A DNA stretch of 64,000 bases from Candidatus Methanoperedens sp. (GCA_035562735.1 DATMWB010000003.1:44232-108231); one strand, 5' to 3'; shown: positions 5,741 through 45,637, numbered from the stretch's first letter. Program-made: numbers and translations. The notes: generated from the sequence alone by a model not told the origin.

Positions 5741-5758
5741 CCAGTTTAACTATTTATC

Positions 5759-5779: not shown

Positions 5780-5798
5780 AACTATTTATCAAAAAAAT

Positions 5799-29345: not shown

Positions 29346-32300
29346 TGTTTAAATTTAAAAATATGCTCGATTTCACTGGTATCGAGATAAAACTTGCCTC
29401 TCCAGAGGAAATTTTATCCTGGTCTACTGGTGAAGTTCTAAAACCTGAAACTATTAACTATCGCTCTTGGCGTCCAGAAAAAGACGGTCTTTTTTGTGAA
29501 AAAATCTTTGGACCCTCTCGCGACTATGAATGTTACTGTGGCAAATACAAAAAAATCCGATTCAAAGGTGTTATTTGTGATAAATGTGGTGTTGAAGTAA
29601 CTACTAGCAAAGTTCGACGTGAACGAATGGGTCATATTGCCCTTGCCGCTCCTATTGCTCATTTATGGTATCTTCGAAACACCCCATCACCATTAGGTGT
29701 TATTCTCGATGTTCCTCAAAAAGAATTAGAAGCCGTTGTTTATTTCACTAAATATTTAGTGACCGCTGTTGATAACGACAAAAGAAAAGAAGCTTTAAAC
29801 AATTTAGCTATCAATTCTGAAAATCGTCAAAAACAAATCGATGTCGATTCCGCTGCTGCAATTGAAAGATACAAGACTCAAACAGCCAAGGAAAAGAAAG
29901 AACTTGACAACAAAATCAAGAACAAAGATCAGCTCCTAATTGCCAAAGAAGAACGTGATGTTCGTCTAAAACAAGACATTCAAAAAATTGAAAACAAAGC
30001 AACTTCCGAAAAAAATCGCATCGAATCCTTGATCAAATTCTTGGAAGATAAAATCAAAAGCATGGAAGTCCTCTCTGTCTTAACCGACGAAGAAGAATTT
30101 TATCTTGCCCAATTTAAGGCCGATATTTTCTACAAGGCAAAAATGGGTGCCGAAGCTTTATTAGAAGTACTAAAAAATATTGATCTTCCAGAGACTGTAA
30201 AAAATCTAAAAAAAGAATTAGCCAAAACTTCTTCAAAACTCAAGAAAAAGAAAATCATGTACAAGATTAGAATCCTAAATGGCATGATTGAAAATTCTAT
30301 TAATCCTTCATGGATGATAATGCAATATGTCCCAGTTATTCCACCAGATCTCCGTCCTATGGTCCAACTCACTGGAGGCCGATTTGCAACTTCAGATTTA
30401 AATGACCTTTATCGACGTCTTATCAACCGCAACAACCGTCTTAAAAAATTAATCAAACTAGGTGCTCCAGAAATTATTCTCCGAAATGAGAAGAGAATGC
30501 TTCAGGAATCCGTTGATATTCTTATTGATGCTCAAAAAAGCTCTAAGAATAAACGAAAAAGTAGCAAACGTTTACCTCGATCACTTTCTGACCTTCTTCG
30601 TGGTAAAAAAGGACGTTTCCGACGTAATCTTCTTGGAAAACGTGTTGATTATTCAGGTCGCTCCGTTATTGTAGTCGGTCCAGAATTAAAACTAAATCAA
30701 GTCGGTCTTCCAAAAGAGATTGCTCTTGAAATGTATCGACCTTTCGTTTTGAAAGAATTGATGGATAGCGGTCTAGCTGCTAACATCAAATCCGCCAAAA
30801 ACTTGATTGACCACCGTGTCAACGAGGTTTATGACATTTTGGAAAGAGTTACAAAAAATACTTATGTTCTCTTAAACCGTGCTCCAACCCTCCACAAGCT
30901 TTCAATTCAGGCATTCAAACCAGTTTTGACCGATGGTTTGGCTATTAGGCTTCATCCTTGTGTCTGTAAAGGTTTCAATGCTGACTTTGATGGAGATCAA
31001 ATGGGTGTCCATTTGCCTCTTTCCGCCGCAGCTCAAAAGGAAGCCAAACATCTCATGCTTCCTTCAAGAAATCTTCTCAAACCTTCAGATGGTGCTCCAG
31101 TTTCAATTCCATCCCAAGAAATGGCCGTCGGTTGTTACTACATCACTTCCGTAAATTCTGCTGATATTTCCAAAGAAAATCAAGAAGGATTTAAGGACTT
31201 ATCCATTATGGGTGATACTGAGGAATTAACATTAGCCTATCAAACAGGCAAAGTTGGTCTTCGTGAATTGGTCGTTGTCAGAATGGATGGTAAGCTCGTT
31301 AAAACCACCTATGGTCGAGTTTGGTTCAATTCCATACTTCCAAAAGAATTTGAATATATTAATGCACCTATGGCTGGCTCAAAAGCCCTAAACGACCTTA
31401 TCGTCAAGTCTATTGAAATTGCTGGACGTCTAAAAACAGTCCGCTTAATCGATTCTCTAAAAGATATAGGTTTTGCCGGATTTACTCTATCTGGACTTTC
31501 ATTAGCCATGCCTGACATGGGTTATCTATCTGAGAAAGAAGGGATAATTGCCGCCGCCGACAAACGCGTTGTGGAAATTGAAGACAACTATAAAATGGGA
31601 CTTATTAGTAATGAAGAGAAAAAGCGTCTAAGTCAATCTGTATGGATGGAAATTACCGAATCCATCGCTGAAAAAACTTGGGACACTCTTGATATTGATT
31701 CTCCTATCCGAGTAGTTTCTGCAGCTGGTATTAAGCGTGCCTCAAAAGATCAAATCAAACAGCTCTCCGGTATGCGTGGACTTATGGTTGATCCAACAGG
31801 TAAAATCGTTCAACTTCCCACCAAAAGCAATTTCCGTGAAGGTTTATCAGTCTTTGAATACATTACTGGTGCCCGAGGTACTCGTAAAGGTTTGGCTGAC
31901 ACAGCTTTACGTACTGCTGACGCTGGTTATTTGACCCGACGTTTAGTGGATACATCCCACGTAGCTATTACCCGAGAGGATGACTGTGGTACAACTCGTT
32001 TTTGGACCATTGATAGAAACGAAAAAGGTCGTGAGAAATATTTCGGACGTCGACTTTTAGGTCGTGTCTTAGCCAATGACGTTATTGATCCTGCTACAAA
32101 AAAGATTGTTGCCAAAAAAGGCGATCTTATAGATAACAACCTTCAAGCAATTATCGAAGCTACTGAGGTCAAAACAGTTGATATTCGATCCGCACTAACC
32201 TGTAAATCAAAAGTAGGTCTTTGTCGTAAATGTTATGGATGGGATCTCTCTACCCGTCAGATGGTTGGTTTTGGAGTTCCAGTTGGAGTTGTTGCCGCTC

Positions 32301-33085
32301 AATCAGTCGGAGAACCAGGTACCCAGCTTACTCTTCGAACTAAACACACTGGTGGTGTCCTTGGTGTCGACGTTACCCAAGGTTTGCCTCGTATCCAAGA
32401 ACTCTTTGAAGTCAGAATGCCAAAGCTACCTTCTCCATTAGCTGAGATTGACGGTAAGATCAAAGTAAAAGAAAATGTCGATGGTTACGAATTAAAATTA
32501 ACTGGAAAAGATAAAAATGGTGCTGCCAAGACAATAAATTATCTTCTTCCAAGCAATGTTACTCTCTTAGTTGGAGATGGTGACCTTGTGGGTCAGGGAA
32601 CTCAACTATGTTCTGGTCCTATCGATGTTCGTGAAATTCTTGAAGTTTCAGGTTTAGAAGCAGCTCAACGCTATCTCATCAACTCAATTCAAGGAGTCTA
32701 CGAATCCCAAGGTATTGCTATTCACGACAAACACATTGAAGTAATTGTTCGTGAAATGAGTGACAAGCTAAAAATTGAGGATCCAGGTGATACCAATTTC
32801 CTTTATGGTCAAATCGTTACTAGACCAGTCTACGAAGAAGCCAATAATAAAGTAAAGGAAAACAACAAAGATGGTAAAGCCTCAAAAGGACACAAAGTAC
32901 TTTTGGGTCTTATCCAATCATCTCTTACTACTGGATCATGGCTTTCTGCAGCCTCTTTCCAACAAACCACTGGAGTTTTAACCGAAGCTTCCTTACTTGC
33001 CGAGGTTGATAGCTTGATAGGTTTGAAAGAAAATGTTATTATCGGACGTCTGATTCCTGTAGGAAAGGGTCAGGAAATTAAATAA
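29345..33085 (+). CDS. rpoC: DNA-directed RNA polymerase subunit beta'
   Basis: 1246 aa with the zinc-binding CxxC…Cxx[10 protein letters not shown] and trigger loop. Confidence 0.95.
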
Positions 33086-33087
33086 TT

Positions 33088-33510
33088 ATGCCAACTTTTA
33101 ATCAACTAATCAGTAAATGTCGAAAGGTCCGACGTCTTAAATTAAGAACCGGTGCACTTCGAGACAATTTTAATAGTATAAAAAGTACTAGTATTGACAG
33201 TTACAATCCCCAAAAGAAAGGGGTAGTAACAGTGGTCAAGACGATGACTCCAAAAAAACCTCATTCTGCTTTACGAAAAGTAGCTAGGGTAAGATTAAGC
33301 AATCGAGCCACTGTCACCGCTTACATTCCTGGTATCGGACATAATTTAGCCGAACATGGTATCGTCTCTATCCGTGGTGGACGTGTTCGAGATCTTCCTG
33401 GTGTTCGTTATCATATTATTCGCGGTAAATATGACGCTGGTGCTGTTGTCGGTCGTCAACAATCCCGCAGCAAATACGGTGCAAAACGTTCTGCTCCGGC
33501 TAAAAGCTAA
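33088..33510 (+). CDS. rpsL: 30S ribosomal protein S12
   Basis: It has the PTxNQL and KKPNSALRK motifs. Confidence 0.95.
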
Positions 33511-33527: not shown

Positions 33528-34010
33528 ATGTCAAGAAAAGGTCAAATAAAAATTAGAGAAGTCCTACCCGACACTGAATACAAGAGTGTTGTAGTTACCA
33601 AGCTTATCAATCGTGTTATGTATGCCGGCAACAAAAATGCTGCTCAAAAACAGGTTTATGAAGCATTGCAACTTTTTAAAAAAGAAAGTAAAAGTGAAGA
33701 TATTATTACTACTCTCGAACAAGCACTTGATAATTTGAAACCAAAAGTTGAGGTTCGTCCTCGTCGTATTGGTGGCGCTGTTTATCAAGTTCCCACACCT
33801 GTGCGAGGTAGTCGTCAATATTCCCTTGCCATTCGCTGGTTGGTAACTTCAGCTAGAAAAAGACCCAACAAACAATATCATTCCTTTGCCCTAAAGTTAG
33901 CTGCCGAACTCTTAGCCACCCTAAACAATGAGGGCTCTTCTATTGCTAAGCGTCAAGAAATTGAGAGAATGGCCGAAGCCAATCGCGCCTTTGCTCATTT
34001 GCGTTGGTAA
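33528..34010 (+). CDS. rpsG: 30S ribosomal protein S7
   Basis: 160 aa, typical S7. Confidence 0.95.
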   Translation: MSRKGQIKIREVLPDTEYKSVVVTKLINRVMYAGNKNAAQKQVYEALQLFKKESKSEDIITTLEQALDNLKPKVEVRPRRIGGAVYQVPTPVRGSRQYSLAIRWLVTSARKRPNKQYHSFALKLAAELLATLNNEGSSIAKRQEIERMAEANRAFAHLRW

Positions 34011-34027
34011 AAAGCTAATTGCAATAA

Positions 34028-34063
34028 TTCGTCATTGCGAGGAGGTACTCCGACGAAGCAATC
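34028..34063 (+). repeat. Interspersed repeat copy C (between the rpsG stop and a terminator)
   Basis: TCGTCATTGCGAGgaggtactccgacGAAGCAATCT. Confidence 0.7.
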
Positions 34064-34074
34064 TATTTTAAAAT

Positions 34075-34102
34075 AAAAAAGTCCCCTGTATAGGGGACTT
34101 TT
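34075..34102. terminator. Rho-independent terminator after rpsG (bidirectional-type hairpin)
   Basis: AAAAAGTCCCCT-gtat-AGGGGACTTTTT, a 12-bp stem with flanking A and T runs. Confidence 0.75.
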
Positions 34103-34136
34103 TAGTTATTTGTTCTATCATGTATCTGATATATAT

Positions 34137-34145
34137 TGATATAAT
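34137..34145 (+). promoter_or_regulatory. Extended -10 TGaTATAAT 5 nt upstream of ATG 34151 (leaderless geometry)
   Basis: Its spacing to the ATG is identical to that of the 7737 element, with no SD. Confidence 0.4.
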
Positions 34146-34150
34146 AAGTA

Positions 34151-34570
34151 ATGTCGAGGTATGAATTGTTTCAACACTTAGTTGGAGAAGAAATAAGAAA
34201 AAGTAATCCCCATGGCAAATTACAGGTTGTTGGCGATACCTCTACTTTAGAAGACGACGAAAGACTTTTCCATATCGCTGGGGAACTCATTTCAAATTGT
34301 GCCGAAAAGGGAGCTGAAGAGATAACTTTAACTCTAACACCACGGCTAATAGTCGTAGAAGACAATTTAGTTCACACCCCAGAAGAAGTGGAAAAAATTC
34401 TTGAAAATATTCAGCAACCACTACCAGTAACCAATAAAGCTATCGTTGAAAACGGTCAATCAATTCGTGGTTTTGGTATTTTTAGTGTTCGAAACACTCT
34501 CCTTGAAATTGGTGCTTCCTTGTTTTATGAACATCGTGATGGTCGAATAATCGCTAGAGTTGAATTATAA
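34151..34570 (+). CDS. Small GHKL (histidine-kinase-like) ATPase domain protein, anti-sigma-factor/SpoIIAB-like size
   Basis: 139 aa with an N-box-like ELISNCAEKG and a G-box-like GFGIFSVRNTLLEIGASL. There is no sensor or DHp domain. Confidence 0.5.
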   Translation: MSRYELFQHLVGEEIRKSNPHGKLQVVGDTSTLEDDERLFHIAGELISNCAEKGAEEITLTLTPRLIVVEDNLVHTPEEVEKILENIQQPLPVTNKAIVENGQSIRGFGIFSVRNTLLEIGASLFYEHRDGRIIARVEL

Positions 34571-34615
34571 GAAAGAAATCTGGTTAGACTATTTTGTTTT
34601 GTGTTAACATAATTT

Positions 34616-36004
34616 ATGTCATTATTTTCAAAATCAAAAGTTGTTCTCTGGCCAAAAGATGAAAGCCTAGAAATATATTTAGACCGAAGTGACAACAACA
34701 CCTTTTCTTTTGAAACAAATCTTTGGAGTGAACAAGGTGATGATAGTTTAAATAGTTTAGCCAGCTTTTTTAAACAAAATAAAATATCCGAGGCATATGT
34801 TCTCCTAAATGACACTTATGTTATTACCAAGACTTTTATTTACGATTCTGTTGTCACTAAGCTCGATCCAAATGAAGTCATAACCTTGGCCAAAGATTCA
34901 ATAGATTTCAAAATATCACCCGAGTCTGTTACCTTTGATCTTGAGTCTGAAGGAAATCGGACTTTAGTTCGAACAAGAATTTTCAATCAGGATAAATTTC
35001 AAATACTTACTGCCAATCTCCAAAAAATTGGTCTAAAAGTACTTGATTTTGAAACCGTATCTTCATCTGTGGCCAAGCTTTACACCAATTTTGATAACGG
35101 TCAGTATTTTTTCTTTTACCCCATAAATACCCACGATTACGTTGCTATCCTAAGCAACAAAGGAAATGTTTACTTAACCTCAATTATCAAAAAATCTCTT
35201 CCGGAACTTAAGAAGTTATTAAATTACGCTCAAGCCTATTTTAGCAACAAGGAGCCAACCCAATATTTGCCAGATACCAATTACAACGAATCCGAAATTT
35301 GTCAACGTTTTCAAAAAGCGTCAAATCTACCTCTACCAGTTCTATCTTTCTTTATTGGCCAATCGAAGCCTGTTGCTGATATAATAAAGACAGAAACAAC
35401 CCAGACGCTTCCCCCAACGCCTACTTCTAATATTATCGATTCAACAAATAATCCCTTACCAACTATGGAAAACAACAAAAAAAGTCTTTTACCAATAATT
35501 GCTGTTTTTATCATCACCGCAATTGTTGCCTCAATTATTGTTTGGTTTATATTAAACCAAAACAAAGATACTGATTTAAATCCAGGTGGTGAAAACCCGG
35601 CAGAAGAAATAAGTAGTACCCCAATGGCAACCGAAGAACCAACTCCTACTATTGCTGAGCTTAGTAAAACCCTAAAAATACAGGTGCTAAATGCCACCGA
35701 CATAAATGGTCAAGCAGCCACTATCAAAACTGAATTGACCAACCTCGGTTTCACTAGTATCAATACAGGTAACAGCAAAGAAGCAGCAACCAGCAACCAA
35801 ATTCAAATAAAAAAGACCATTGTTCCGGACTATTTTCTTAAAAACGTGGCTCAATTTTCGACAGCAACAGTCAGTGAGTTATCTGAAACTTCAACCTATG
35901 ATGTTGTCTTTATTATTGGGGTAGATCTCAAAACTGGAAGTGCCGCTCCTACAGCGACAACTCCCACTACAACTAGTACCCCATCAGCTACTCCCACTAA
36001 TTAG
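34616..36004 (+). CDS. Membrane protein with a PilM-like cytoplasmic N-domain, one TM helix and a C-terminal LytR_C domain
   Basis: The N-terminal ~290 aa resemble PilM (…FQILTANLQKIGLKVLDFETVSSSVAKLY). A TM helix (LLPIIAVFIITAIVASIIVWFIL) and a LytR_C-like C-terminus (LKIQVLNATDINGQAATIKTELTNLGF…VVFIIGVDL) follow. Confidence 0.5.
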   Translation: MSLFSKSKVVLWPKDESLEIYLDRSDNNTFSFETNLWSEQGDDSLNSLASFFKQNKISEAYVLLNDTYVITKTFIYDSVVTKLDPNEVITLAKDSIDFKISPESVTFDLESEGNRTLVRTRIFNQDKFQILTANLQKIGLKVLDFETVSSSVAKLYTNFDNGQYFFFYPINTHDYVAILSNKGNVYLTSIIKKSLPELKKLLNYAQAYFSNKEPTQYLPDTNYNESEICQRFQKASNLPLPVLSFFIGQSKPVADIIKTETTQTLPPTPTSNIIDSTNNPLPTMENNKKSLLPIIAVFIITAIVASIIVWFILNQNKDTDLNPGGENPAEEISSTPMATEEPTPTIAELSKTLKIQVLNATDINGQAATIKTELTNLGFTSINTGNSKEAATSNQIQIKKTIVPDYFLKNVAQFSTATVSELSETSTYDVVFIIGVDLKTGSAAPTATTPTTTSTPSATPTN

Positions 36005-36021
36005 TAATTAAAAAAATCACT

Positions 36022-37041
36022 ATGAAAATCCTTGTTACAGGAGGTTGCGGTTTTATTGGTAGTAATTTTATCCATTATTGGTTGTCGCGACATCCCGATG
36101 ACACCATTGTAAATTTAGATAAATTGACCTATGCTGCCAATCCAGAATCACTACGTGATTTAGAAAAAAATCCTCATTATCAATTTATCAAAGCTGACAT
36201 TTGTGATGAGGTTGCGGTCGACAAAGTTATGTCCGAAGGTATCGAGCTCATAATTCATTTTGCCGCCGAATCACATGTTGATCGTTCTATCGATGATCCA
36301 CTTCTTTTTGTAAAGACCAACGTTTTAGGAACTTACACCCTTTTAAATTCCGCAAAAAAACACGGCAACATCCGTTTTCACCATGTTTCCACTGACGAAG
36401 TTTTTGGAGCTCTCCCCTTAGATACTGAGGAAAAATTCACTGAAGATACTCACTATGATCCCCGAAGTCCATACTCAGCTTCAAAAGCATCTTCAGATCA
36501 CTTTGTTAGATCTTTCTATCATACATTTAATTTGCCAGTGACTATCAGTAATTGTTCAAATAACTATGGTGCCTTTCAATCTCCAGAAAAATTTGTGCCA
36601 AGAATGATTACTAATCTTATGGATGGTAAAAAAATTCCTGTCTATGGAGATGGTCTCTATGTCCGAGATTGGCTTTATGTTGACGACCATTGTTCTGCCA
36701 TCGAAGCTATTGTCTTAAATGGAAAAATAGGTCAGTCATACAATATTGGCGGTCTTGTCAAAGACTATTCCAACCTAGAAGTTGCCAAGACAATTCTTCA
36801 AATTATGGGTAAAACCGATGCTGAACTTGAATTTGTAGCCGATAGACCTGGTCATGATCGTCGCTATGCTGTCTCTTGGGAAAAAATTCATAATGAATTG
36901 AATTGGTCTCCCAGTCTTACCTTTGAAGAGGGGATAACAAAAACAATCAACTGGTATCAGCAAAACGAAACATGGTGGCGCGAAGCTAAGACCGAAGCTG
37001 AAGCTTTCTATGTCCGACTCAACGCTTCAAAAAACAAATAA
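36022..37041 (+). CDS. rfbB: dTDP-glucose 4,6-dehydratase
   Basis: MKILVTGGCGFIGSNF, YxxxK and an extended SDR fold. Confidence 0.88.
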   Translation: MKILVTGGCGFIGSNFIHYWLSRHPDDTIVNLDKLTYAANPESLRDLEKNPHYQFIKADICDEVAVDKVMSEGIELIIHFAAESHVDRSIDDPLLFVKTNVLGTYTLLNSAKKHGNIRFHHVSTDEVFGALPLDTEEKFTEDTHYDPRSPYSASKASSDHFVRSFYHTFNLPVTISNCSNNYGAFQSPEKFVPRMITNLMDGKKIPVYGDGLYVRDWLYVDDHCSAIEAIVLNGKIGQSYNIGGLVKDYSNLEVAKTILQIMGKTDAELEFVADRPGHDRRYAVSWEKIHNELNWSPSLTFEEGITKTINWYQQNETWWREAKTEAEAFYVRLNASKNK

Positions 37042-37045
37042 TTTG

Positions 37046-37060
37046 TTATACTGAAGCTAT
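37046..37060 (+). promoter_or_regulatory. Leaderless promoter/start module TTATACTGAAGCTAT (second identical copy)
   Basis: TGtTATACT at 37044-52 is followed 8 nt later by the rfbC ATG at 37061. The 15-mer is identical to 12837-12851. Confidence 0.35.
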
Positions 37061-37621
37061 ATGATGAAATTTACCCCACTCTCCATTCCTGGACTAGTTC
37101 TTGTTGAACCTCAAGTATTTGGTGATGAAAGAGGTTTTTTTATGGAAACTTACAGTAAAAAAGAGTTTGCTGAAGCTGGTATAAATGTTGATTTTGTTCA
37201 AGACAACCACTCCCGATCTACCCAAGGGGTGCTCCGCGGACTTCATTTTCAAAAACCACCTTTTGCCCAAGCAAAACTTGTTAGAGTTACTCAAGGTGAA
37301 GTTTTGGATGTGGCTGTTGATATTCGACCCGATTCTCCGACCTTTGGTAAATGGGATTCAGCGCATCTTACCGCTGAAAACAAAAAAATGTTTTATCTTC
37401 CCGAAGGTTTTGCACATGGATTTTATGTCTTAACCGAAACAGCCGATTTCCAATACAAGTGTACCAACTTCTACAATAAGGAATCTGAAGGCGGTCTACT
37501 TTGGAATGACCCTGATATCAATATTGCTTGGATGGCTCCAAGTCCCACTCTTTCCGACAAAGATAAAAACTGGCCAAATCTAAAAGATATTGAAGCCGAG
37601 CTTAAAACCCTCAAGTGGTAA
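37061..37621 (+). CDS. rfbC: dTDP-4-dehydrorhamnose 3,5-epimerase
   Basis: Cupin RmlC motifs (…RGFFMETY…, …RGLHFQ…). Confidence 0.88.
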   Translation: MMKFTPLSIPGLVLVEPQVFGDERGFFMETYSKKEFAEAGINVDFVQDNHSRSTQGVLRGLHFQKPPFAQAKLVRVTQGEVLDVAVDIRPDSPTFGKWDSAHLTAENKKMFYLPEGFAHGFYVLTETADFQYKCTNFYNKESEGGLLWNDPDINIAWMAPSPTLSDKDKNWPNLKDIEAELKTLKW

Positions 37622-37684
37622 CAATAAATTTAACATTAAAAAATCTTATACTTTTTAATGAATTTTCAATAAACAACTTTTTGT

Positions 37685-37716
37685 CCCCCTTATTAAGGGG
37701 GATTAAGGGGGTTTAA
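37685..37716 (+). terminator. G/C hairpin (CCCCCTTA…TAAGGGGG), a duplicated GGGGG arm and then TTT after rfbC
   Basis: CCCCCTTATTAAGGGGGATTAAGGGGGTTT. Confidence 0.3.
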
Positions 37717-37739
37717 ATTATTAATTTAAAAATTTTTTT

Positions 37740-38624
37740 ATGAAAATTATTGGCACAGGTCTCACCGGTTTGGTTGGTTCAAGAATCATTGAGCTTAATC
37801 CAGATGTTGAATTCATCAATATTTCTATTGAAACTGGGATCAGTATCCTTGATCCTATTCAGCTAGAAAAAGTGTTTACCGACAATCCTGACGCAGATGC
37901 GGTTTTACATCTGGCTGCCTTTACTGACACCAACGGTGCCTGGGAGCAAAACGGTGATAAAAATGGTCTATGTTATCAGCTCAATGTCACCGGAACTCAA
38001 AATATTGTTGATTTGTGTAAAAAATACGATAAATATTTAATTCATATTTCCACCGACTTTGTTTTTGATGGAAAAAAAGTTGGAAAATATACCGAAGATG
38101 ACCTTCCAAATCCTATCGAATGGTACGGTCAAACCAAATATTTTTCTGAAAAAGTTGTCCTAGATTCAGGCATTTTATCCTCTATTGTTAGACTGGCTTT
38201 TCCTTACCGAGCCAATTTTGAACCCAAAAAAGATATCATCCGCAAAATTATTGATGGTTTCAAAGCTGGTAAGCTCTATCCCCAATGGACCGACCATTTT
38301 ACCAGTCCAGTCTTTATTGACGATATAGCCAATGCCCTAAAAGTATTTTTTGAAAAAAAACCTATCGGAATCTATCACTTAGTTGGTTCCTCTTCGCAGT
38401 CACCTTTTGAAATGTGTCAATTCATCGCAGAAGTTTTTGGATTTGATAAAAGTATAGTTCAAGCCAGCACCTTGGCAGATTATGTCAAATCATTACCCGA
38501 AGGTTCACGCCCATGGCAATACAATTTATCCTTAAGTAACGAAAAAATAAAATCTCTCGGTATTCAAATCAAAACCTTAAAAGAAGGTCTTGAAGAGATG
38601 AAAAGACAGACGGAAAACACTTGA
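37740..38624 (+). CDS. rfbD: dTDP-4-dehydrorhamnose reductase-like NAD(P)-dependent epimerase/dehydratase
   Basis: It has a Rossmann N-terminus (GTGLTGLVGS) and the YGQTKYFSE catalytic motif typical of RmlD. Confidence 0.65.
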   Translation: MKIIGTGLTGLVGSRIIELNPDVEFINISIETGISILDPIQLEKVFTDNPDADAVLHLAAFTDTNGAWEQNGDKNGLCYQLNVTGTQNIVDLCKKYDKYLIHISTDFVFDGKKVGKYTEDDLPNPIEWYGQTKYFSEKVVLDSGILSSIVRLAFPYRANFEPKKDIIRKIIDGFKAGKLYPQWTDHFTSPVFIDDIANALKVFFEKKPIGIYHLVGSSSQSPFEMCQFIAEVFGFDKSIVQASTLADYVKSLPEGSRPWQYNLSLSNEKIKSLGIQIKTLKEGLEEMKRQTENT

Positions 38625-38647
38625 TGGTTTAGTTGTTACAATTAGAT

Positions 38648-39742
38648 ATGGATAGAGAACCTCCAGCTTCTGTATTTTCTAATGCAAACAAACTGTCTGC
38701 ATTTCCAAAACAAGTCGAATCAGTTTTAAGAGGTGAAACTATTGCTCCAATCACCCTTGAAATTCAACCTAGCTCCGGTTGTAATCACGCCTGTCCCAAA
38801 TGTTCCGGAAAATTAAATAAAGATTCTCCTTATTATGCCGAAATAAGAAAACAATTTACATTTATAAACCCCGATGTGGTTAAGGGAATTGTCGATTCTC
38901 CAAGAGCTCCATTAGGTGTAGTTTTTGCTGGTGATACAGGTGACCCTCTTCTTCATCCCCAGATTGAGTCACTTATAGACATTGTCAGCGATAAAAACAT
39001 TTCTATCTCAGTGATTACTAATGGCCAGGCATTAAATCAGAGTATTTCCCAAAAAATTGTGCAAAGATGTCAGGGTGTAAGGGTCTCATTAGATGCTTTC
39101 GACGCAAAGTCACACCAATTGACACATGGTAGCAATGGTGAACAATGGGAAAGTTTATTAGAAAACATTAGAGAGCTTGTCAGTCTACGGGATAATTCTC
39201 CGAAAAAAAAAGAATGTTTAATTGGTATTGGTTATTTGACCGCAAAACACACACTCGGTGGAATCATTGAGGCTACAAAACTTGCAAAAGATCTTGGAGT
39301 AGATTATATCCATTTTCGCCCATTTTTTTATTCTAATGATGAAATTAGTCAGGAAATTATCGAAAGTTGTAAAGCTTTAGAAGATGAAAATTTCTCTGTA
39401 ATATTTCCCGGCGCCAAATATCAAAATTCAAAAGATAGAAACTATCCAACGTGTAAGGCTGCAAATTTTGTAACAGTTATAAATCCTAAAGGAGAAGCAT
39501 ATATTTGTTGTCATCACATAGGACAAGAAAATGCCAAAATTGATACCATTGGAACAAATCCAGAAGATTGGGATAAATTTGTTATAAGTGATAAAAGACG
39601 CGATCTAATCCAAAAATTTAATTTAACCGAATGTCCGCCATTTTGTCGTCTTCATAGTCATAATCAAACTTTATCCAAAGGAGTTTCCGTAGATTTATTA
39701 AACCAGCCTGTATCCGCCAGTCACCACGCCAAGTTTTTATAA
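38648..39742 (+). CDS. Radical SAM domain protein (possible sugar-modifying enzyme)
   Basis: It has a CxxxCxxC (SSGCNHACPKCSG) and additional C-terminal cysteines (CCHH…CPPFC). The first ATG is at 38648, while the track ORF begins at TTG 38633. Confidence 0.65.
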   Translation: MDREPPASVFSNANKLSAFPKQVESVLRGETIAPITLEIQPSSGCNHACPKCSGKLNKDSPYYAEIRKQFTFINPDVVKGIVDSPRAPLGVVFAGDTGDPLLHPQIESLIDIVSDKNISISVITNGQALNQSISQKIVQRCQGVRVSLDAFDAKSHQLTHGSNGEQWESLLENIRELVSLRDNSPKKKECLIGIGYLTAKHTLGGIIEATKLAKDLGVDYIHFRPFFYSNDEISQEIIESCKALEDENFSVIFPGAKYQNSKDRNYPTCKAANFVTVINPKGEAYICCHHIGQENAKIDTIGTNPEDWDKFVISDKRRDLIQKFNLTECPPFCRLHSHNQTLSKGVSVDLLNQPVSASHHAKFL

Positions 39743-39777
39743 TTATTTCTATTTTTCCCAGCCTTCCATTAAAAGTG

Positions 39778-39806
39778 TTGTTTTTTGCACAATTATAGGA
39801 TATAAT
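39778..39806 (+). promoter_or_regulatory. Candidate promoter TTGTTT-17-TATAAT upstream of the G+C-rich orphan gene
   Basis: A -35-like box at 39778-83 and a perfect TATAAT at 39801-06. An SD (AAGGAGAG, 39846-53) precedes ATG 39858. Confidence 0.4.
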
Positions 39807-39857
39807 ACCAATGCTTGTTTTAGCGTCGCATCTCATTTCCTAAATAAGGAGAGCTTG

Positions 39858-40535
39858 ATGAGCGACAATCGTTCTTTGACAATCGAAGGTGGGTCGACCG
39901 TGACCATCAGTTTCAAGACTGATCCCGCCAATGATTGGCAGCTAACGCTGCAAAACGTTCGGGAAGAGGAAGGCGGAATTTTCGCCGACAATTTTCTTCT
40001 TGCCCGGAAAAACGGTCAACATTTCTTTGCCAAACTCGTAAAAGTTTTGGGGATCAAAGCCGACGGATCAGAATTTCCGTACTGGCTTCCCAGGATTTTT
40101 GACATCGGGAATGGCTACAAATGTGGAGATGTCGTAATTCAGTTTCGCAAACACCCCCAGTCGAAACGCTGGATGGTTGATGTGGAATCAGAATACGGCA
40201 GCAAGTCTCCCGATCTCCTAGAAAAGGTTATCCGAATCAGTCGTTCTTCGCTTGACAATATCAAGCAGGCTGTTAAGAAAACCGTCAAGGAAACCGGACA
40301 AGACTGGCTCAACTCTCAGCGTATTGGTGGAGACAAAGTTTCCATGCATTGCGTTGACGCAGGTTGGTCACCACAGCTTTTTGCTCAGGGCAAGGTAATG
40401 GATGTTTTCGACTTCGTTGCAAATTCCCATGATGGTCCCGGGAAAATCGCACTAGTTGAAGCACTTCAACACCTTCCCACCCCCATCGCCAAGCAAGTCG
40501 CGATGTGTATCATTGTTCCTCCAACCGAGGAATAA
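39858..40535 (+). CDS. Hypothetical protein, G+C-rich orphan gene
   Basis: A 226-aa ORF with a strong SD and markedly higher G+C than its neighbours. No recognisable domain. Confidence 0.5.
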   Translation: MSDNRSLTIEGGSTVTISFKTDPANDWQLTLQNVREEEGGIFADNFLLARKNGQHFFAKLVKVLGIKADGSEFPYWLPRIFDIGNGYKCGDVVIQFRKHPQSKRWMVDVESEYGSKSPDLLEKVIRISRSSLDNIKQAVKKTVKETGQDWLNSQRIGGDKVSMHCVDAGWSPQLFAQGKVMDVFDFVANSHDGPGKIALVEALQHLPTPIAKQVAMCIIVPPTEE

Positions 40536-40631
40536 AAAACTAGCCAGATGCTAGAACAAGCATGCCGACACCCCATGTGTTGACGTTTTAAGCTGACGTC
40601 TCCTACGTTCGGTCGAAGCACAATTTTTTAT

Positions 40632-40689
40632 GTGTCCTCTTCTCTGATTTCAGACTTCGGTCTGTTTAAAAAATCAGGGAAGGGGACAC
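40632..40689. promoter_or_regulatory. Nested hairpin with a 19-bp outer stem (2 G·U if RNA) enclosing a 5-bp stem with a UUCG tetraloop
   Basis: GTGTCCTCTTCTCTGATTT-[CAGAC-TTCG-GTCTG]-tttaaaa-AAATCAGGGAAGGGGACAC. No U-run follows in either orientation, so it is not a canonical terminator. Confidence 0.5.
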
Positions 40690-40698
40690 AGTTATATT

Positions 40699-41934
40699 TC
40701 AAATTCTCTTCCCCACTCTCTCTCCCTCTCTCACAGCATAATTAATACCCCTGTCTTCCGGATATATTTGTGCAAAGTTAACATGAATAACTTTATTTTC
40801 TACATTAGTTTTTCTCTCCGTCTTGTCATTATAATTTTTGGTAACTATATGTTGTGCATATTTAAATCTAAAAACATGTTTTTCAATAAGTCCTTTTTCA
40901 CTAAATTCAGGAAAAATTTTCTTTAAATAGTCAAAAAAATCTTTTTCAATTAAAGAGTCTTTGCATGTAAAATATTTGTGATTTTGGGGCAAATAAGTCC
41001 CCATATAATAAATATTTTTTCCGCCATAATTCTCTGTCCCCATTAGGTTTGTATGTTGAATAAAGGCCAAAAAAGGGGAGTTGATATCATTGATATTATG
41101 CCAATAATAAGGACTTAAACTCTGTTTTGAAGAAAAAACCATCGTCACCGCTCCCAAATAATCAATACCATCTAATGGCGCCGAGCTAATAATTCTATCG
41201 AATCCGTCATCGCGAGTGTAATCACGAAGCAATCTTTCTGGATTGGTCTCAATATTCGTCTTTATCTCTCCTCCCAACTCTTTTATTCTTTTTTCCAATT
41301 CATCAATAATTATTTGAAATCCTCCTTCCATATAACCTAGATACTCTTTCCCCCTTTCACTCGAATTACCTCTTGTATGAATTCTTGCCCACATCCATGC
41401 CATTGAAATATCTTGATATCTATCGTTAAATTTACCTTTTAATAGTGGCTCCCAGACTACTTTATAAGCATTTTCCCCACACCATTTTCTCATCCACTCA
41501 TAAGCCAAAACATCTTCAAATTTCTTCCAATTCTTTTCTCTTTCTAGATAGATTTTAACTAGTCCCAATCTCAACTTATCAAATAAATTTAGAGGTTTAA
41601 ATTTTAATAAATCTATTACCCCTGCAAACGGATATATAGTTCCACTGTAATATAGAGCAGTTTTACTCTCAAACCATTTTAACTTATTTTCCAAACCCAA
41701 CTCCTTGATCAAAGCAATTATTTCTTTGTCAGTTTTAAAAATGTGATGATAAGCTTTCTCTAAATTCGTCCCTTCAATTTTAAATCCCCCCAACAATCCA
41801 CCCAAACTATCACTTCTCTCAAAAATTATTACCTTATGACCCTTTTGAAGCATTCTGTATCCCACCACCAAACCTGTTATTCCTCCGCCGATTATTGCAA
41901 TTTTTTGTTTTTTCACTTCCAAATTATATCTCAA
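40699..41934 (-). CDS. FAD-dependent oxidoreductase (amine-oxidase / UDP-galactopyranose-mutase-like Rossmann family)
   Basis: It has the dinucleotide-binding motif IAIIGGGITGLVVG…E…GGL at the N-terminus and is about 410 aa. It sits in a sugar-nucleotide context. Confidence 0.6.
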   Translation of the reverse strand: MRYNLEVKKQKIAIIGGGITGLVVGYRMLQKGHKVIIFERSDSLGGLLGGFKIEGTNLEKAYHHIFKTDKEIIALIKELGLENKLKWFESKTALYYSGTIYPFAGVIDLLKFKPLNLFDKLRLGLVKIYLEREKNWKKFEDVLAYEWMRKWCGENAYKVVWEPLLKGKFNDRYQDISMAWMWARIHTRGNSSERGKEYLGYMEGGFQIIIDELEKRIKELGGEIKTNIETNPERLLRDYTRDDGFDRIISSAPLDGIDYLGAVTMVFSSKQSLSPYYWHNINDINSPFLAFIQHTNLMGTENYGGKNIYYMGTYLPQNHKYFTCKDSLIEKDFFDYLKKIFPEFSEKGLIEKHVFRFKYAQHIVTKNYNDKTERKTNVENKVIHVNFAQIYPEDRGINYAVREGERVGKRI

Positions 41935-41949
41935 TCAGCTTATAACGGG

Positions 41950-41958
41950 TGTTAGAAT
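41950..41958 (+). promoter_or_regulatory. Extended -10 TGtTAGAAT 7 nt upstream of ATG 41966 (leaderless geometry)
   Basis: TG-n-TAGAAT with the ATG at 41966 and no SD. Confidence 0.35.
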
Positions 41959-41965
41959 TAAAAAT

Positions 41966-42214
41966 ATGGAAAATAAACAAAATAAAAAGAATTTTTTAGC
42001 CTTGGGTCGAACTCATATGGCTAATGAAAGAACTATGTTATCTTATTGGCGCACCGCTCTAACATTTTTAGTTCTTGGCGCCTATCTAATCAGACAAACT
42101 CCCGCCGAAGAATTTATATTACCCGCCACAATTGCTATTTTATTTGGTGTTGTACTCTTTATTTTTGGAACAGTTAAGTTCTATCAATTTAAAAAAATTA
42201 TCAACAACAGTTAG
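41966..42214 (+). CDS. DUF202/YidH-family small membrane protein
   Basis: It has the ANERTMLSYWRTALTFLVLG signature and two TM helices. Confidence 0.55.
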   Translation: MENKQNKKNFLALGRTHMANERTMLSYWRTALTFLVLGAYLIRQTPAEEFILPATIAILFGVVLFIFGTVKFYQFKKIINNS

Positions 42215-42264
42215 CTTTGGAAAATCCTACCCAAACAAGATTTTTCGTGATATCATAATCAAGT

Positions 42265-42300
42265 CAAAAAAAGCGGGTGTCTTGCCCGTTTTTATTTTTT
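42265..42300. terminator. A-run / GCGGG…CCCG hairpin / T-run (bidirectional-type)
   Basis: AAAAAAGCGGGTGTCTTGCCCGTTTTTATTTTTT. Confidence 0.45.
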
Positions 42301-42316
42301 TACTATTTATCTATTA
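42296..42316 (+). promoter_or_regulatory. Second copy of the 21-bp motif TTTTTTACTATTTATCTATTA, upstream of fusA
   Basis: Identical to 5759-5779. Confidence 0.35.
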
Positions 42317-42341
42317 GTCTATTCAACTAATTATCTAAAAA

Positions 42342-44453
42342 ATGGCCGACGCAATTCAAGTCACTAAAAACCGTGTAGTTACCATGGATAAAGTCCGAAA
42401 CATCGGTATTATCGCTCATATCGATGGTGGAAAAACTACCACCACTGAACGTCTTCTTTTTTATACTGGAAAAATTCACAAAATTGGTTCTGTTGATGAA
42501 GGTACTACCACAACTGATTCAATGGTCCAAGAAAAGGAGAGGGGAATTACCATCCAATCCGCCTGTATTACCACCTTTTTTAAGAATTATCGTATCAATA
42601 TTATTGATACTCCAGGGCATGTTGATTTTACCGCTGAAGTTGAACGTTCACTTCGTGTCTTAGATGGTGCCATCATGATTTTTGACGGAAATGCCGGTGT
42701 TCAAGCCCAATCTGAAACTGTGTGGCGACAAGCCGACAAGTATCAAGTTCCTCGCCTCGCCTTTGTCAACAAAATGGACAAGGTTGGAGCATCCTTCCAA
42801 GGAACTCTTGATTCTATTACTCAAAAATTACGTTGTCCTATCGTTCCAGTTGTCTTACCTATTGGTGAAGAGCATGACTTTATGGGTGTTATTGATCTCA
42901 TGGAAATGAAGATGATTGTTTATGATAAGGATGAAGAAGGTATGGAATTTACCACCAAAGATGTTACTCCAGAATTTATAGAAGCTGCCACCAAAGCCCG
43001 CGCTGCCATGGTCGAAAAAATTGCCGGTGAAGACGAAACGCTCATGGAAAAATTCCTCAATGATGAGGAGATTTCGGTTCCAGAGCTTAAAGCTGTCCTA
43101 AGAAAAGCCACTATTGATAGAAAATTATTCCCCGTCTTTTGTGGTGCTGCTTGGAGAAACAAGGGTATTCATCCTATTCTAGACGCTATCGTTGACTACT
43201 TACCTTCTCCAATTGATTTACCTCCAACAATAGGATTTGACGTTACTACTGGCGATAAAATTTCTCGTAAACCAGAAAACAAAGAACCTTTTTCCGGACT
43301 TTTATTTAAAGTTCAATCAGATCCACATGTTGGTACCTTGTCCTATGTCCGTATTTACTCAGGTTCCATAAAAACTGGTCAAGAAGTTTACAATGCTACC
43401 AAGCAAAAAAGCGAAAGAATCGGTCGTTTACTCCTAATGCACGCTGATAAGCGTGAAGGTATAGAAGAAGGTTATGCAGGTGAAATTATTGCCTGTATTG
43501 GTTTAAAAGAATCAATAACTGGAGACACCTTGTGCGATAAATCAGCCCCAATCTCTCTTTCTCCAATCCAGTTTTCCGAACCGGTTATTTCCCTTTCTAT
43601 TGAGCCAGAAACTGCCGATGATCAGGAAAAAATGGGCGCAGCCCTCAATCGTTTAACCTCAGAAGATCCCACCTTTAGAGTTTCATACAACCATGAAACT
43701 GGCCAAACAATTATTGCTGGTATGGGTGAACTATACCTCGAAATTATTGTTGATCGTTTAAAGCGCGAATTTGGAGTTGCCGTTAAAACAGGCGCCCCAC
43801 AGGTTGCTTATCGTGAAACAATTTCTCAAAATGCCGAAGGTGAAGGTAAATATATCCACCAATCCGGTGGTCATGGTCAGTATGGTCATTGTAAAGTCCG
43901 TGTTGAACCCAAGAATCGCGGTGAAGGTATTGAGTTTGTCAATGCTATCAAGGGTGGTGTTATTCCTGCCAACTTTATTCCCGCTATTGAAAAAGGTGTT
44001 CGTGAAACTCTCCAAAAAGGTATTATTGCTGGTTACCCATGTACTGACATTAAAGTTTCAGTTTACGACGGTTCTTACCACGAAGTTGATTCTTCAGAAA
44101 TGTCATTCAAATTGGCCGGTGCTTACGCCATCAAAGATGCTTTTGGACTAGCTAGACCTCTCATCCTCGAACCTATCATGAAGTTTGAAGTTGCTACTCC
44201 TTCCGAATTTTTAGGAACAGTAATTGGTGACCTTTCTTCCAGACGCGGTCAAATTGCTGGTACCACTGAGGCTTTTGGTTTTAGTACCATCGAAGCCACC
44301 ATTCCTCTAGAGGCTGTTCGTGGTTACGCCACCGTTATCCGCTCTCTAACTCAAGGACGCGGTTCATTCTATATGGAACCAAGCCACTACGACCCAGTTC
44401 CTCGTGATATTCAGGAAAAACTAACCATCAAGACTACTGATAAAAAAGAATAA
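42342..44453 (+). CDS. fusA: Elongation factor G
   Basis: It has G-domain motifs (AHIDGGKTT, DTPGH, NKMD) and all five EF-G domains. Confidence 0.95.
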   Translation: MADAIQVTKNRVVTMDKVRNIGIIAHIDGGKTTTTERLLFYTGKIHKIGSVDEGTTTTDSMVQEKERGITIQSACITTFFKNYRINIIDTPGHVDFTAEVERSLRVLDGAIMIFDGNAGVQAQSETVWRQADKYQVPRLAFVNKMDKVGASFQGTLDSITQKLRCPIVPVVLPIGEEHDFMGVIDLMEMKMIVYDKDEEGMEFTTKDVTPEFIEAATKARAAMVEKIAGEDETLMEKFLNDEEISVPELKAVLRKATIDRKLFPVFCGAAWRNKGIHPILDAIVDYLPSPIDLPPTIGFDVTTGDKISRKPENKEPFSGLLFKVQSDPHVGTLSYVRIYSGSIKTGQEVYNATKQKSERIGRLLLMHADKREGIEEGYAGEIIACIGLKESITGDTLCDKSAPISLSPIQFSEPVISLSIEPETADDQEKMGAALNRLTSEDPTFRVSYNHETGQTIIAGMGELYLEIIVDRLKREFGVAVKTGAPQVAYRETISQNAEGEGKYIHQSGGHGQYGHCKVRVEPKNRGEGIEFVNAIKGGVIPANFIPAIEKGVRETLQKGIIAGYPCTDIKVSVYDGSYHEVDSSEMSFKLAGAYAIKDAFGLARPLILEPIMKFEVATPSEFLGTVIGDLSSRRGQIAGTTEAFGFSTIEATIPLEAVRGYATVIRSLTQGRGSFYMEPSHYDPVPRDIQEKLTIKTTDKKE

Positions 44454-44495
44454 AGTTTATCGCGAGCAAATCGAATGGTTATTGCATTCAATAAC

Positions 44496-44524
44496 TCGTC
44501 ATTGCGAGCGAAGCGAAGCAATCT
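44496..44524 (+). repeat. Interspersed repeat copy D (between the fusA stop and a terminator)
   Basis: TCGTCATTGCGAGCGAAGCGAAGCAATCT. Confidence 0.7.
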
Positions 44525-44534
44525 ATAAAAATCT

Positions 44535-44558
44535 AAACCCGCCGAAGAGGCGGGTTTT
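44535..44558 (+). terminator. Rho-independent terminator after fusA
   Basis: AAACCCGCC-gaaga-GGCGGGTTTT. Confidence 0.75.
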
Positions 44559-44560
44559 CA

Positions 44561-44589
44561 TTGACAACCTATAAAATTTGTAATAGATT
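44561..44589 (+). promoter_or_regulatory. Candidate promoter TTGACA-17-TAGATT for the orphan gene between fusA and tuf
   Basis: A perfect -35 TTGACA lies immediately after the terminator, with a 17-nt spacer and a TAGATT -10. Confidence 0.35.
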
Positions 44590-44622
44590 TATGTCAGTTA
44601 ATATTTAAAATTACAAAAAAAT

Positions 44623-45618: not shown

Positions 45619-45637
45619 AATCTCTATCTTTAACTCT

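Follow-up and report, generated by a model that had tools for sequence, protein, structure and literature searches.

The str operon (rpsL-rpsG-fusA-tuf) is interrupted in a 64,000-nucleotide stretch of DNA deposited as Candidatus Methanoperedens sp. (GCA_035562735.1, DATMWB010000003.1:44232-108231; this whole stretch is hereafter called the window). The gene rpsG ends at position 34010, fusA starts at 42342, and the 8,331 bp between them contain nine open reading frames (ORFs), eight on the plus strand and one on the minus strand. Such a gap raises the question of whether a foreign segment recently entered an intact operon or whether the split is an inherited property of the lineage. A reading made from the sequence alone, referred to here as the original prediction, described it as a laterally acquired accessory island with a cell-surface glycan or teichoic-acid-like module. 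Comparison with related genomes argues for a different history, in which a single ancestral insertion probably split the operon in the whole clade and left a vertically inherited core with three slots for cargo genes. The inventory of genes itself is sound: ORFs and domain scans agree that nine genes on both strands part rpsG from fusA, and the Pfam and NCBIfam domains found with hidden Markov models agree with the names that had been given to them.

Synteny of the rpsG-fusA gap

The best matches of the window are metagenome-assembled genomes (MAGs) of Candidatus Shapirobacteria, with 96% identity for both RpsG and RpoC, and its rpsL/rpsG region is 96% identical to that of the Shapirobacteria loci L003 and L004. 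By sequence identity the window is thus assigned to Candidatus Shapirobacteria (Patescibacteria, Microgenomates). Among other contigs placed in Shapirobacteria by RpoC and RpsG identity and by synteny (L004, L008, L010, L013, L023), several are titled Gammaproteobacteria or Pseudobdellovibrionaceae, and a protein identical to a G+C-rich orphan encoded in the gap carries the name Candidatus Methanoperedens. Such Shapirobacteria records are likely mislabelled or mis-binned.

An RpsG search of one genome per GTDB species yielded 52 loci, each taken with 10-kb flanks and compared by tblastn with all window proteins, by measurement of the rpsG-fusA gap and by clustering of ORFs. A homologue of the LytR_C-domain protein encoded in the gap was found downstream of rpsG in all 22 informative loci with an RpsG identity of 62-96%, usually at a distance of 17-100 nucleotides (nt), with about 0.5-3.4 kb extra in L016, L019, L017 and L021. 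Wherever the contig extends far enough, the order is rpsG, LytR_C gene, (rmlB, rmlC, rmlD), a minus-strand gene for a flavin adenine dinucleotide (FAD) oxidoreductase, and fusA. The oxidoreductase gene lies immediately before fusA in 17 of the 17 related loci that reach it (15 from the scan, plus L066 and L067), and rmlB, rmlC and rmlD keep their order in every locus that extends to them except L016, where no rmlB homologue was detected, L019 and L025. The LytR_C gene, the three rml genes and the oxidoreductase gene form a five-gene clade-wide core, which occupies the same site in the same order down to 69% RpoC identity. The size of the gap within the clade ranges from 2.8 kb (L025) to 11.5 kb (L067), and its commonest value, about 5.1 kb, corresponds to the five core genes alone.

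The outgroup, with an RpsG identity of 59% or less, is mostly patescibacterial and covers Woesebacteria, Pacebacteria, other Microgenomates and Parcubacteria, Saccharibacteria, TM6 and others. There, the gap measures 15-283 bp in 25 of the 28 loci, the exceptions being L044 (2.3 kb) and two Planctomycetota loci without fusA within 10 kb. A neighbour-joining tree of rpoC gathers the insert-bearing loci in one clade, and in the sister of this clade, L047, rpsG and fusA are adjacent. In the basal member of the clade, L025, the insert consists of the LytR_C gene and the oxidoreductase gene alone; L019, nested within the clade, is also without rml and has a tyrosine recombinase-like ORF beside the oxidoreductase gene. 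Because the core is present clade-wide while the outgroups have rpsG by fusA, the arrangement appears ancestral to the lineage. The core would be an old and fixed arrangement of the clade, its signature, into which a few strain-specific genes were slotted later. Since all sampled Shapirobacteria species carry the split and the core, usually with rmlBCD, the description of the whole segment as an acquired accessory island is to be abandoned: the same separation with the same core content recurs throughout the lineage, and rpsG and fusA are adjacent in sister Microgenomates and in other Patescibacteria. The coordinates of the features are collected in Table 1.

Table 1. Features of the str region of the window and related features discussed in the text
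Feature	Position	Strand	Remarks
rpoB	26085-29345		upstream of rpsL
rpoC	29345-33085		upstream of rpsL
rpsL	33088-33510	+	str operon, upstream half
rpsG	33528-34010	+	str operon, upstream half
REP-like hairpin repeat	34028-34063		left edge of the gap, after rpsG
Terminator-like hairpin (A-tract/GC-stem/T-tract)	34076-34103		3' of the REP-like repeat; terminator scan
GHKL (HATPase_c) stand-alone mini-protein, 139 amino acids	34151-34570	+	variable gene 1; Pfam HATPase_c 26.8 bits, cut-off 26.4 (marginal)
LytR_C-domain protein, 462 amino acids	34616-36004	+	core gene 1; Pfam
rmlB	36022-37041	+	core gene 2; TIGR01181 473.9 bits, cut-off 365.1
rmlC	37061-37621	+	core gene 3; TIGR01221 249.9 bits, cut-off 155.75
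rmlD-like	37740-38624	+	core gene 4; Pfam RmlD_sub_bind 145 bits, full length
Radical SAM enzyme	38648-39742	+	variable gene 2; PF04055 42.1 bits, cut-off 29.5
Orphan cassette	39778-40698	+	promoter, ribosome-binding site, ORF 39858-40535, structured 3' region
G+C-rich orphan, 225 amino acids	39858-40535	+	variable gene 3; no family
FAD oxidoreductase	40699-41934	-	core gene 5; Pfam Amino_oxidase/NAD_binding_8; NCBIfam PRK07233 421 bits, cut-off 252
DUF202 membrane protein, 82 amino acids	41966-42214	+	variable gene 4; Pfam DUF202
fusA leader, extended -10-like TGATATCAT	42248-42256	+	conserved
fusA leader, terminator-like hairpin	42269-42293	+	with T-tract
fusA leader, AT-rich CTAWTTATC repeats	42296-42338	+	include the 21-bp motif (42296-42316)
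fusA	42342-44453	+	str operon, downstream half
Strain-specific orphan, 331 amino acids	44623-45618	+	between fusA and tuf
tuf	45845-47017	+	str operon, downstream half
SIR2_2-radical SAM pair, other genomes	L058 5951-9749; L061 5992-9092; L063 6011-9119; L064 5917-9663; L059 1-1829		

Composition, edges and transcription of the gap

That the whole 8.3 kb arrived recently by lateral transfer, in this strain or species, and broke an intact str operon is very improbable. An event of this kind would account for the interrupted operon, the single G+C-rich gene, the repeat and terminator at the left edge and the four genes missing from some close relatives, but throughout the clade, in each species sampled and down to 69% RpoC identity, the five core genes keep their place and order. 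Composition and edges of the gap count against it as well. Relative to 60 window genes, the orphan at 39858-40535 is the sole outlier, with a GC of 0.479 (z 3.0) and a G+C at third codon positions (GC3) of 0.50 (z 4.8), and the other eight gap genes stay within |z| <= 1.6 for G+C and GC3. The G+C profile thus marks the orphan as foreign in composition but the eight remaining genes as native. A mosaic make-up can be retained to the extent that the orphan is foreign, that four of the nine genes vary among close relatives and that rmlC and rmlD alleles conflict with the rpoC tree, but not for the segment as a whole. As regards mobility, no tRNA was found in the 64 kb by ARAGORN, no Rfam family reached its gathering threshold in the whole window, no recombinase or integrase domain was detected by Pfam in the nine gap ORFs, and no island-specific direct repeats were found flanking the gap.

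The repeat and terminator described for the left edge and the 21-bp motif described for the right edge are all present in their places. The repeat is a repetitive extragenic palindrome (REP)-like hairpin element of about 35 nt (CGTCATTGCGAG...GAAGCAATC) with six copies in the window (16209, 16237, 22260, 34029, 44497 and 61593), of which the one at 61593 matches the left-edge copy exactly. The copies that were checked (34029, 44497, 61593) fall between a stop codon and a terminator hairpin. Because the repeat is multi-copy and lies between stop codon and terminator elsewhere in the window, it is no island border; together with the terminator it is a generic, genome-wide intergenic element. A terminator-like hairpin is found 3' of rpsG in the window and in its closest relatives. 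The 21-bp motif has a second copy at 5759-5779.

Short-read contigs of the same population stop at the REP-like repeat by rpsG, 47 nt past rpsG in L001 and L002 and 116 nt before the GHKL gene in L056, as would be expected if unrelated contigs had been joined at a multi-copy repeat during assembly or binning. The likelihood of such a chimera is nevertheless close to nil: about 20 independent assemblies from different species, some of them long contigs of 0.5-0.9 Mb, have rpsG followed by the same LytR_C gene, and the order rpsG, GHKL, LytR_C is identical in L012. Two independent assemblies reproduce the remainder of the layout, from the GHKL gene to the start of fusA in L056 (from SRR7550492) and from the end of rmlD to fusA in L057 (from SRR7550491). 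Both leave the rpsG-GHKL junction unbridged, as their contigs break at the repeat, and the evidence for this junction comes from the window itself and from the order in L012. The 503-kb contig of L066 has the layout of the window except for the GHKL gene. The layout of the gap is no assembly artefact.

The leader of fusA carries sequence elements that are conserved within the clade. A TG-n-TATCAT element followed, about 10 nt further, by an A-tract/GC-stem/T-tract hairpin precedes fusA in the window and in L009, L016, L020, L023, L025, L066 and L067, and this combination is present even in loci without a plus-strand gene upstream. In L005, L008, L011, L013, L014 and L015, TGCTATGAT takes the place of this element and abuts the start codon of the oxidoreductase gene. 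One or the other of these two -10-like elements lies 50-110 nt upstream of fusA in all members of the clade. They look like extended -10 promoters, and the -10 element of the TGCTATGAT form may be symmetrical and serve the oxidoreductase gene as well. The hairpin is conserved mainly in sequence, with one compensatory pair of nine, and might act as an attenuator close to the promoter or stabilise the 5' end; since its covariation is almost nil, no structured regulatory RNA is claimed for the fusA leader. The CTAWTTATC repeats of the leader have similar counterparts in the fusA leaders of L011, L013, L014 and L015. In the window, such repeats stand directly before the start codons of both the RNase J gene (5799; repeats 5743-5793) and fusA, neither of which has a visible Shine-Dalgarno sequence.

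At the other end of the gap, relatives without the GHKL gene have about 80 nt with a terminator-like hairpin and a conserved TGTGTTAACATAATTT right before the ATG of the LytR_C gene. The same TGTGTTAACATAATTT occurs in the window at 34597-34615, with equivalents in L003, L004, L009, L066 and L067, and no Shine-Dalgarno sequence accompanies it. It could be an extended -10 element giving rise to a leaderless or near-leaderless mRNA.

Cargo at the three junctions

The four variable genes of the gap, coding for the GHKL protein, a radical S-adenosylmethionine (SAM) enzyme, the orphan and the DUF202 protein, occupy three junctions. Between rpsG and the LytR_C gene, a GHKL gene is found in the window and in L012 only, with 30% identity between the two proteins. 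In L003, L004, L009, L066 and L067, which do not have it, rpsG and the gene that follows are about 80 nt apart. Three or four minus-strand genes take its place in L017 and L021, a Nudix hydrolase gene among them and, in L017, also one for a 2-hydroxyacid dehydrogenase fusion. Between the oxidoreductase gene and fusA, the window, L009 and L066 have the DUF202 gene and L067 a DUF2164 gene; DUF202 is missing from most relatives, and other small ORFs are found at this place in L016 and L020.

The content of the junction between rmlD and the convergent oxidoreductase gene differs from locus to locus. It holds the radical SAM gene and the orphan in the window and L066, the orphan without the radical SAM gene in L009, and the radical SAM gene with three Nudix-like paralogues and a 693-amino acid protein in L067. 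L004 and L012 have the same kind of set minus the radical SAM gene, other orphans are found here in L003 and L007, and rmlA in L023; in L005, L008, L014 and L015 the junction is empty. The recurring cargo of L004 (14598-19208), L012 (15479-20200) and L067 (11268-15927) comprises two or three diverged Nudix-like paralogues of 227-298 amino acids and a protein of 655-693 amino acids encoded in divergent orientation. The latter belongs to no family found by the searches, apart from a weak ParB-CE match in L004, and its interpretation as a diverged SIR2_2 protein was rejected in all three loci (hhalign probability 0.1%). PADLOC recognised no known defence system among the proteins of the gap and the cargo of its relatives.

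The orphan behaves, as judged from its sequence surroundings, as a small self-contained mobile unit. It has a sigma-70-like promoter matching the consensus (TTGTTT-17-TATAAT, 39778-39806), kept in L066 and L009 as TTGAAA or TTGATA-17-TATAAT, a strong AAGGAG ribosome-binding site, and a highly structured 3' region (40536-40698; minimum free energy -56.9 kcal/mol, z -5.6) whose hairpin motif is confined to orphan-carrying loci. Seven homologues of the protein were found among 5.8 billion proteins, and at the str gap the window shares the gene with L009 and L066. The only distant homologue on a long contig, 49% identical and encoded at 10001-10648 of L055 from another Patescibacterium, is likewise in a ribosomal/translation neighbourhood, between thrS and rplA, where the rplKA / rplJL region is split. 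No match to the orphan was found in Pfam, NCBIfam, PADLOC or PDB profiles, and an AlphaFold2 model from seven sequences (predicted local distance difference test, pLDDT, 58) was of too low a quality for interpretation and gave no Foldseek match below E 0.45. A relationship to the Nudix-like paralogues carried by relatives was also tried and rejected (hhalign probability 0.1%).

The radical SAM enzyme shows its CX3CX2C motif as C-NHA-C-PK-C in the translation, and its C-terminus is rich in cysteine. Among its 62 homologues, those with 69-86% identity are Shapirobacteria genes at the same junction (L066, L067 and L068 only). Those with 38-43% identity directly follow the gene of a 650-695-amino acid SIR2_2 protein in five of the six contexts sampled (L058, L059, L061/62, L063 and L064/65, from Magnetococcales and others). 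The two genes overlap or lie no more than 1 nt apart in four of these five contexts, the gap being 53 nt in L061; a Nudix gene adjoins the pair in L058 and L064/L065; and the surrounding regions are rich in genes for resolvases, integrases, HNH, Mrr, FRG and TCAD9 proteins. The SIR2_2 partners match ThsA and LmuA weakly in PADLOC, the pair as such matches no known system there, and no description of a SIR2-radical SAM pair was found in the searchable literature. The pair, which recurs in unrelated bacteria, is in its own right a candidate conflict system. In the sixth context (L060, a Patescibacterium), the radical SAM homologue lies beside genes for FdtA, a Nudix-like protein and a sugar nucleotidyltransferase, and in L069 a homologue with 30% identity stands amid glycosyltransferase and other radical SAM genes. 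Identification of the enzyme as a viperin (pVip) was rejected, the NCBIfam viperin model giving 42 bits against a cut-off of 180 and the PADLOC pVip matches covering profile positions 9-112 of 257.

These contexts suggest that the cargo between rmlD and the oxidoreductase gene might consist of parts or remnants of mobile anti-phage cassettes, with the str gap a hot spot of integration throughout the clade and a SIR2_2-radical SAM(-Nudix) module as the source of the radical SAM gene. We regard this as possible but rather unlikely. Besides the SIR2_2 genes preceding five of the six homologues in mobile and defence-like surroundings and the weak ThsA and LmuA matches of their products, it can draw on the Nudix or Nudix-like genes that follow the Shapirobacteria radical SAM gene in L067 and L068, and on the L067 set of three Nudix or Nudix-like paralogues and a 693-amino acid protein, a set that recurs in this slot in L004 and L012 with no radical SAM gene. 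It is at odds with the lack of a SIR2 gene in the window or any Shapirobacteria locus, with 655-693-amino acid proteins that are not detectably SIR2 (hhalign probability 0.1%), and with PADLOC, which finds no known system and pVip matches to the generic radical SAM core only; the association is one of neighbourhood, and other homologues of the radical SAM gene are linked to glycans. A substrate resembling a nucleotide-diphospho-sugar, such as a deoxythymidine diphosphate (dTDP)-sugar, ADP-ribose or nicotinamide adenine dinucleotide (NAD), would reconcile both contexts. Because the context evidence is split, the radical SAM gene is no evidence for a glycan-modification pathway, and any role of it in glycan metabolism is uncertain.

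A second strain-specific insertion (44454-45844) parts fusA from tuf in the window. It encodes a 331-amino acid orphan (44623-45618) without a match in Pfam, NCBIfam or PADLOC, bracketed by terminator-like hairpin repeats at 44529-44565 and 45632-45668 that are 76% identical to each other. In L008, L009, L014, L016, L023 and L066, fusA and tuf are adjacent and this orphan is absent, and the junction also varies elsewhere in the clade, with other inserts in L013, L015 and L067.

Core functions and comparison with known systems

The first core gene encodes a protein with an unusual combination of domains: a PilM/GspL-like actin-fold cytoplasmic domain (about residues 1-250), a transmembrane helix (292-315), a Pro/Thr-rich linker and a Cei-like LytR_C ectodomain (about 353-435), of which residues 353-400 are covered by the Pfam LytR_C match. 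An AlphaFold2 model based on 41 members of the family reaches a pLDDT of about 90 both in residues 1-250 and in the C-terminal domain, with disordered Pro/Thr-rich linkers. In Foldseek searches against the PDB, the model matched PilM (E 6e-12) and the cytoplasmic domain of GspL/EpsL (TM-score 0.53 on the target), followed by FtsA (E about 6e-9 and weaker), so that the predicted N-terminal domain has the actin-like fold of the PilM/GspL/FtsA branch. At the sequence level, Pfam and NCBIfam gave no PilM or GspL match, and no pilus or secretion genes (PilN/O, GspE ATPase) were seen in any locus. The protein is apparently no LCP glycopolymer ligase, because the LytR_cpsA_psr catalytic domain was not detected in it by Pfam. 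Its architecture suggests a non-catalytic transmembrane scaffold tying a cytoplasmic partner to the wall. The family comprises 238 clusters at 90% identity, whose named members are all Shapirobacteria or loosely labelled Microgenomates. A search of 1.84 billion proteins with the N-terminal domain alone retrieved just 31 representatives at 50% identity; those that are near complete measure about 435-525 amino acids and the rest look like fragments. From these searches the family appears small and confined to the Shapirobacteria lineage.

At the other end of the core, the oxidoreductase belongs to the amine-oxidase/PPOX/CrtI superfamily and has an equivalog-level match to PRK07233, a model named 'hypothetical protein'. 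Its closest solved relative is the uncharacterised PF1083 of P. furiosus (3nrn, E 1.8e-10); its likeness to protoporphyrinogen oxidase, phytoene desaturase, amine oxidases and UDP-galactopyranose mutase lies mainly in the FAD-binding N-terminus, and its only PADLOC match is to a 'C-3',4' desaturase' model. The gene points towards the LytR_C-rml genes and away from fusA, and its fixed position forms the right border of the core. The candidate function of UDP-galactopyranose mutase, considered by analogy with a rhamnose-galactan wall, was rejected: only the FAD-binding residues 8-73 align, and there is no GLF domain.

Between these two genes, rmlB and rmlC have equivalog-level matches and, with the rmlD-like gene, cover steps 2-4 of dTDP-L-rhamnose synthesis; rmlA lies within the locus in L020 and L023. 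The divergence of these genes does not follow that of rpoC. L005 and L008 share 92-93% RpoC identity with the window but 39-40% for RmlC and 48-56% for RmlD, while L017 and L021 share 81-83% for RpoC and yet 75-77% for RmlC and 74-77% for RmlD. This pattern points to allelic replacement in situ.

Another functional interpretation takes all nine genes as one pathway for a surface glycan or teichoic-acid-like polymer, with a variable middle between conserved flanks and with the radical SAM enzyme and the flavoenzyme tailoring a dTDP-deoxysugar. The central position of rmlBCD, the rmlA genes of L020 and L023, and rmlC and rmlD alleles swapped independently of the species tree, as is typical of surface-glycan loci, are consistent with it. 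So are the patescibacterial radical SAM homologue adjoining FdtA and a sugar nucleotidyltransferase (L060), the 30%-identity homologue among glycosyltransferases (L069) and the weak PDB matches of the radical SAM enzyme, which include BlsE cytosylglucuronate decarboxylase, a nucleotide-sugar enzyme (E about 4e-4). But no glycosyltransferase, flippase or polymerase was seen across about 25 loci, the LytR_C protein is without the LCP catalytic domain, the oxidoreductase is without a GLF/UGM domain, the cargo of the relatives consists of orphans, Nudix-like paralogues and a weak ParB-CE protein with no sugar enzymes, and the minimal loci L025 and L019 have no sugar genes at all. A single pathway of this kind is unlikely. 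Of the glycan or teichoic-acid-like module in the original prediction, clear rmlB and rmlC and a divergent relative of rmlD remain; against the rest stand the window without rmlA or a glycosyltransferase, the missing LCP domain and the SIR2-linked kin of the radical SAM enzyme.

The reading that we prefer, an ancestral insertion with a conserved core and independent cargo, can be spelled out as follows. One ancestral event would have placed the gene of the LytR_C membrane protein and the convergent PRK07233 oxidoreductase gene between rpsG and fusA, with rmlB-rmlC-rmlD between the two in most members, and the five-gene core would since have been passed on vertically. Strain genes would come and go in three slots, at rpsG and the LytR_C gene, at rmlD and the oxidoreductase gene, and at the oxidoreductase gene and fusA, filled in the window by the GHKL gene, by the radical SAM gene with the orphan cassette, and by DUF202, respectively. 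The core may serve the cell envelope, RmlB, C and D supplying dTDP-L-rhamnose for a wall glycopolymer and the LytR_C protein acting as a non-catalytic transmembrane scaffold between a cytoplasmic partner and the wall. The accessory genes would be independent cargo rather than steps of one glycan pathway. The groups rpsL-rpsG(-LytR_C-rml) and fusA-tuf would be separate transcription units, the latter under its own extended -10 promoter.

A number of points weigh against this reading or parts of it. The rpoC tree is a quick neighbour-joining tree of one protein, with one locus per species and many loci truncated by contig ends, and the rml genes may either have belonged to the original insert and disappeared from L025 and L019 or have joined it later. 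As regards function, the roles proposed are all drawn from domains and folds: LytR_C has no established biochemical activity, the rmlD-like protein reaches 144.5 bits with TIGR01214, below the cut-off of 224.05, a tblastn search of the 64-kb window with the RmlA of L023 gave no match for rmlA, and no glycosyltransferase was found in the locus or window. As regards transcription, L005, L006 and L008 have 17-20 nt between rpsG and the LytR_C gene, the core may be co-transcribed with rpsG in these three and transcription units may differ between species, and scans with promoter and terminator consensus found no more sites than in shuffled sequence.

A bolder version would see in the gap a clade-defining envelope module, with a scaffold expressed with or after the ribosomal genes and wall growth coupled to translation capacity, combined with a hot spot for conflict cargo that includes a hitherto undescribed system of SIR2_2-radical SAM-Nudix type, of which the radical SAM gene of the window would be a derivative. 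We consider this combination quite unlikely.

Literature searches (Shapirobacteria and rhamnose, LytR_C and PilM, str operon in bacteria of the candidate phyla radiation) returned no prior description, and the synteny signature is apparently unreported. It offers an assembly-independent marker for Candidatus Shapirobacteria, the LytR_C gene coming after rpsG and an oxidoreductase gene facing fusA, which may aid binning and taxonomy. It also indicates that the highly conserved str operon can stay split at rpsG-fusA across a deep lineage, implying a rewired promoter for fusA-tuf, and it provides two targets for envelope biology in an uncultured lineage, the PilM/GspL-like-LytR_C protein and the PRK07233 flavoenzyme. 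The segment should be described neither as an accessory island nor as a complete glycan pathway.

Loci for O-antigen and capsule synthesis, and rmlABCD with them, have conserved flanks and a variable interior. The gap resembles such surface-polysaccharide loci in its RmlB and RmlC equivalogs, its RmlD domain, its alleles independent of the species tree and its variable content between conserved flanks. It differs from them in that rmlA is usually out of the locus, that genes for glycosyltransferases, flippases and polymerases are absent, that the flanks are translation genes and that the cargo is mostly made of orphans.

The LytR_C protein shares with GspL an actin-fold cytoplasmic domain, one transmembrane helix and an ectodomain. 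In PilM/GspL systems, however, the outer part is a PilN/GspL periplasmic domain, in contrast to the LytR_C ectodomain found here, and there is no family match at the sequence level. With the model of Cei, the envelope integrity protein Rv2700 of M. tuberculosis, the protein scores 35 against an equivalog cut-off of 150, and this short model (212 positions) leaves no room for the PilM-like cytoplasmic domain. LCP proteins possess the LytR_cpsA_psr catalytic domain, whereas the protein of the window has the accessory LytR_C domain alone.

Thoeris ThsA and DSR proteins are named as SIR2-based anti-phage systems in a passage of bioRxiv 10.1101/2025.09.30.679545. Only relatives of the radical SAM enzyme bear a likeness to such systems, through their SIR2_2 adjacency, apparent operons, mobile-element-rich regions and weak ThsA match; the window has no SIR2 gene, and the pairing matches no PADLOC system.

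The closest parallels in history are insertions between or within ribosomal and RNA polymerase operons, such as tusDCB between rpoBC and str, bfd-bfr and ilv-leu between str and S10, and nrdHEF inside the rpoBC operon (PMC8046335). In that study, 67% of rearrangement events were traced to gene insertions. As in those cases, a few non-ribosomal genes appear to have been inserted once in an ancestor and inherited by its clade, with no signs of long-distance transfer. Unlike them, the break described here falls within the str operon, at rpsG-fusA, and not between operons, and it concerns a lineage of Patescibacteria. It is kept in every sampled descendant with no decay into full separation; its core includes a gene family found nowhere else, and its junctions have become slots for variable cargo.

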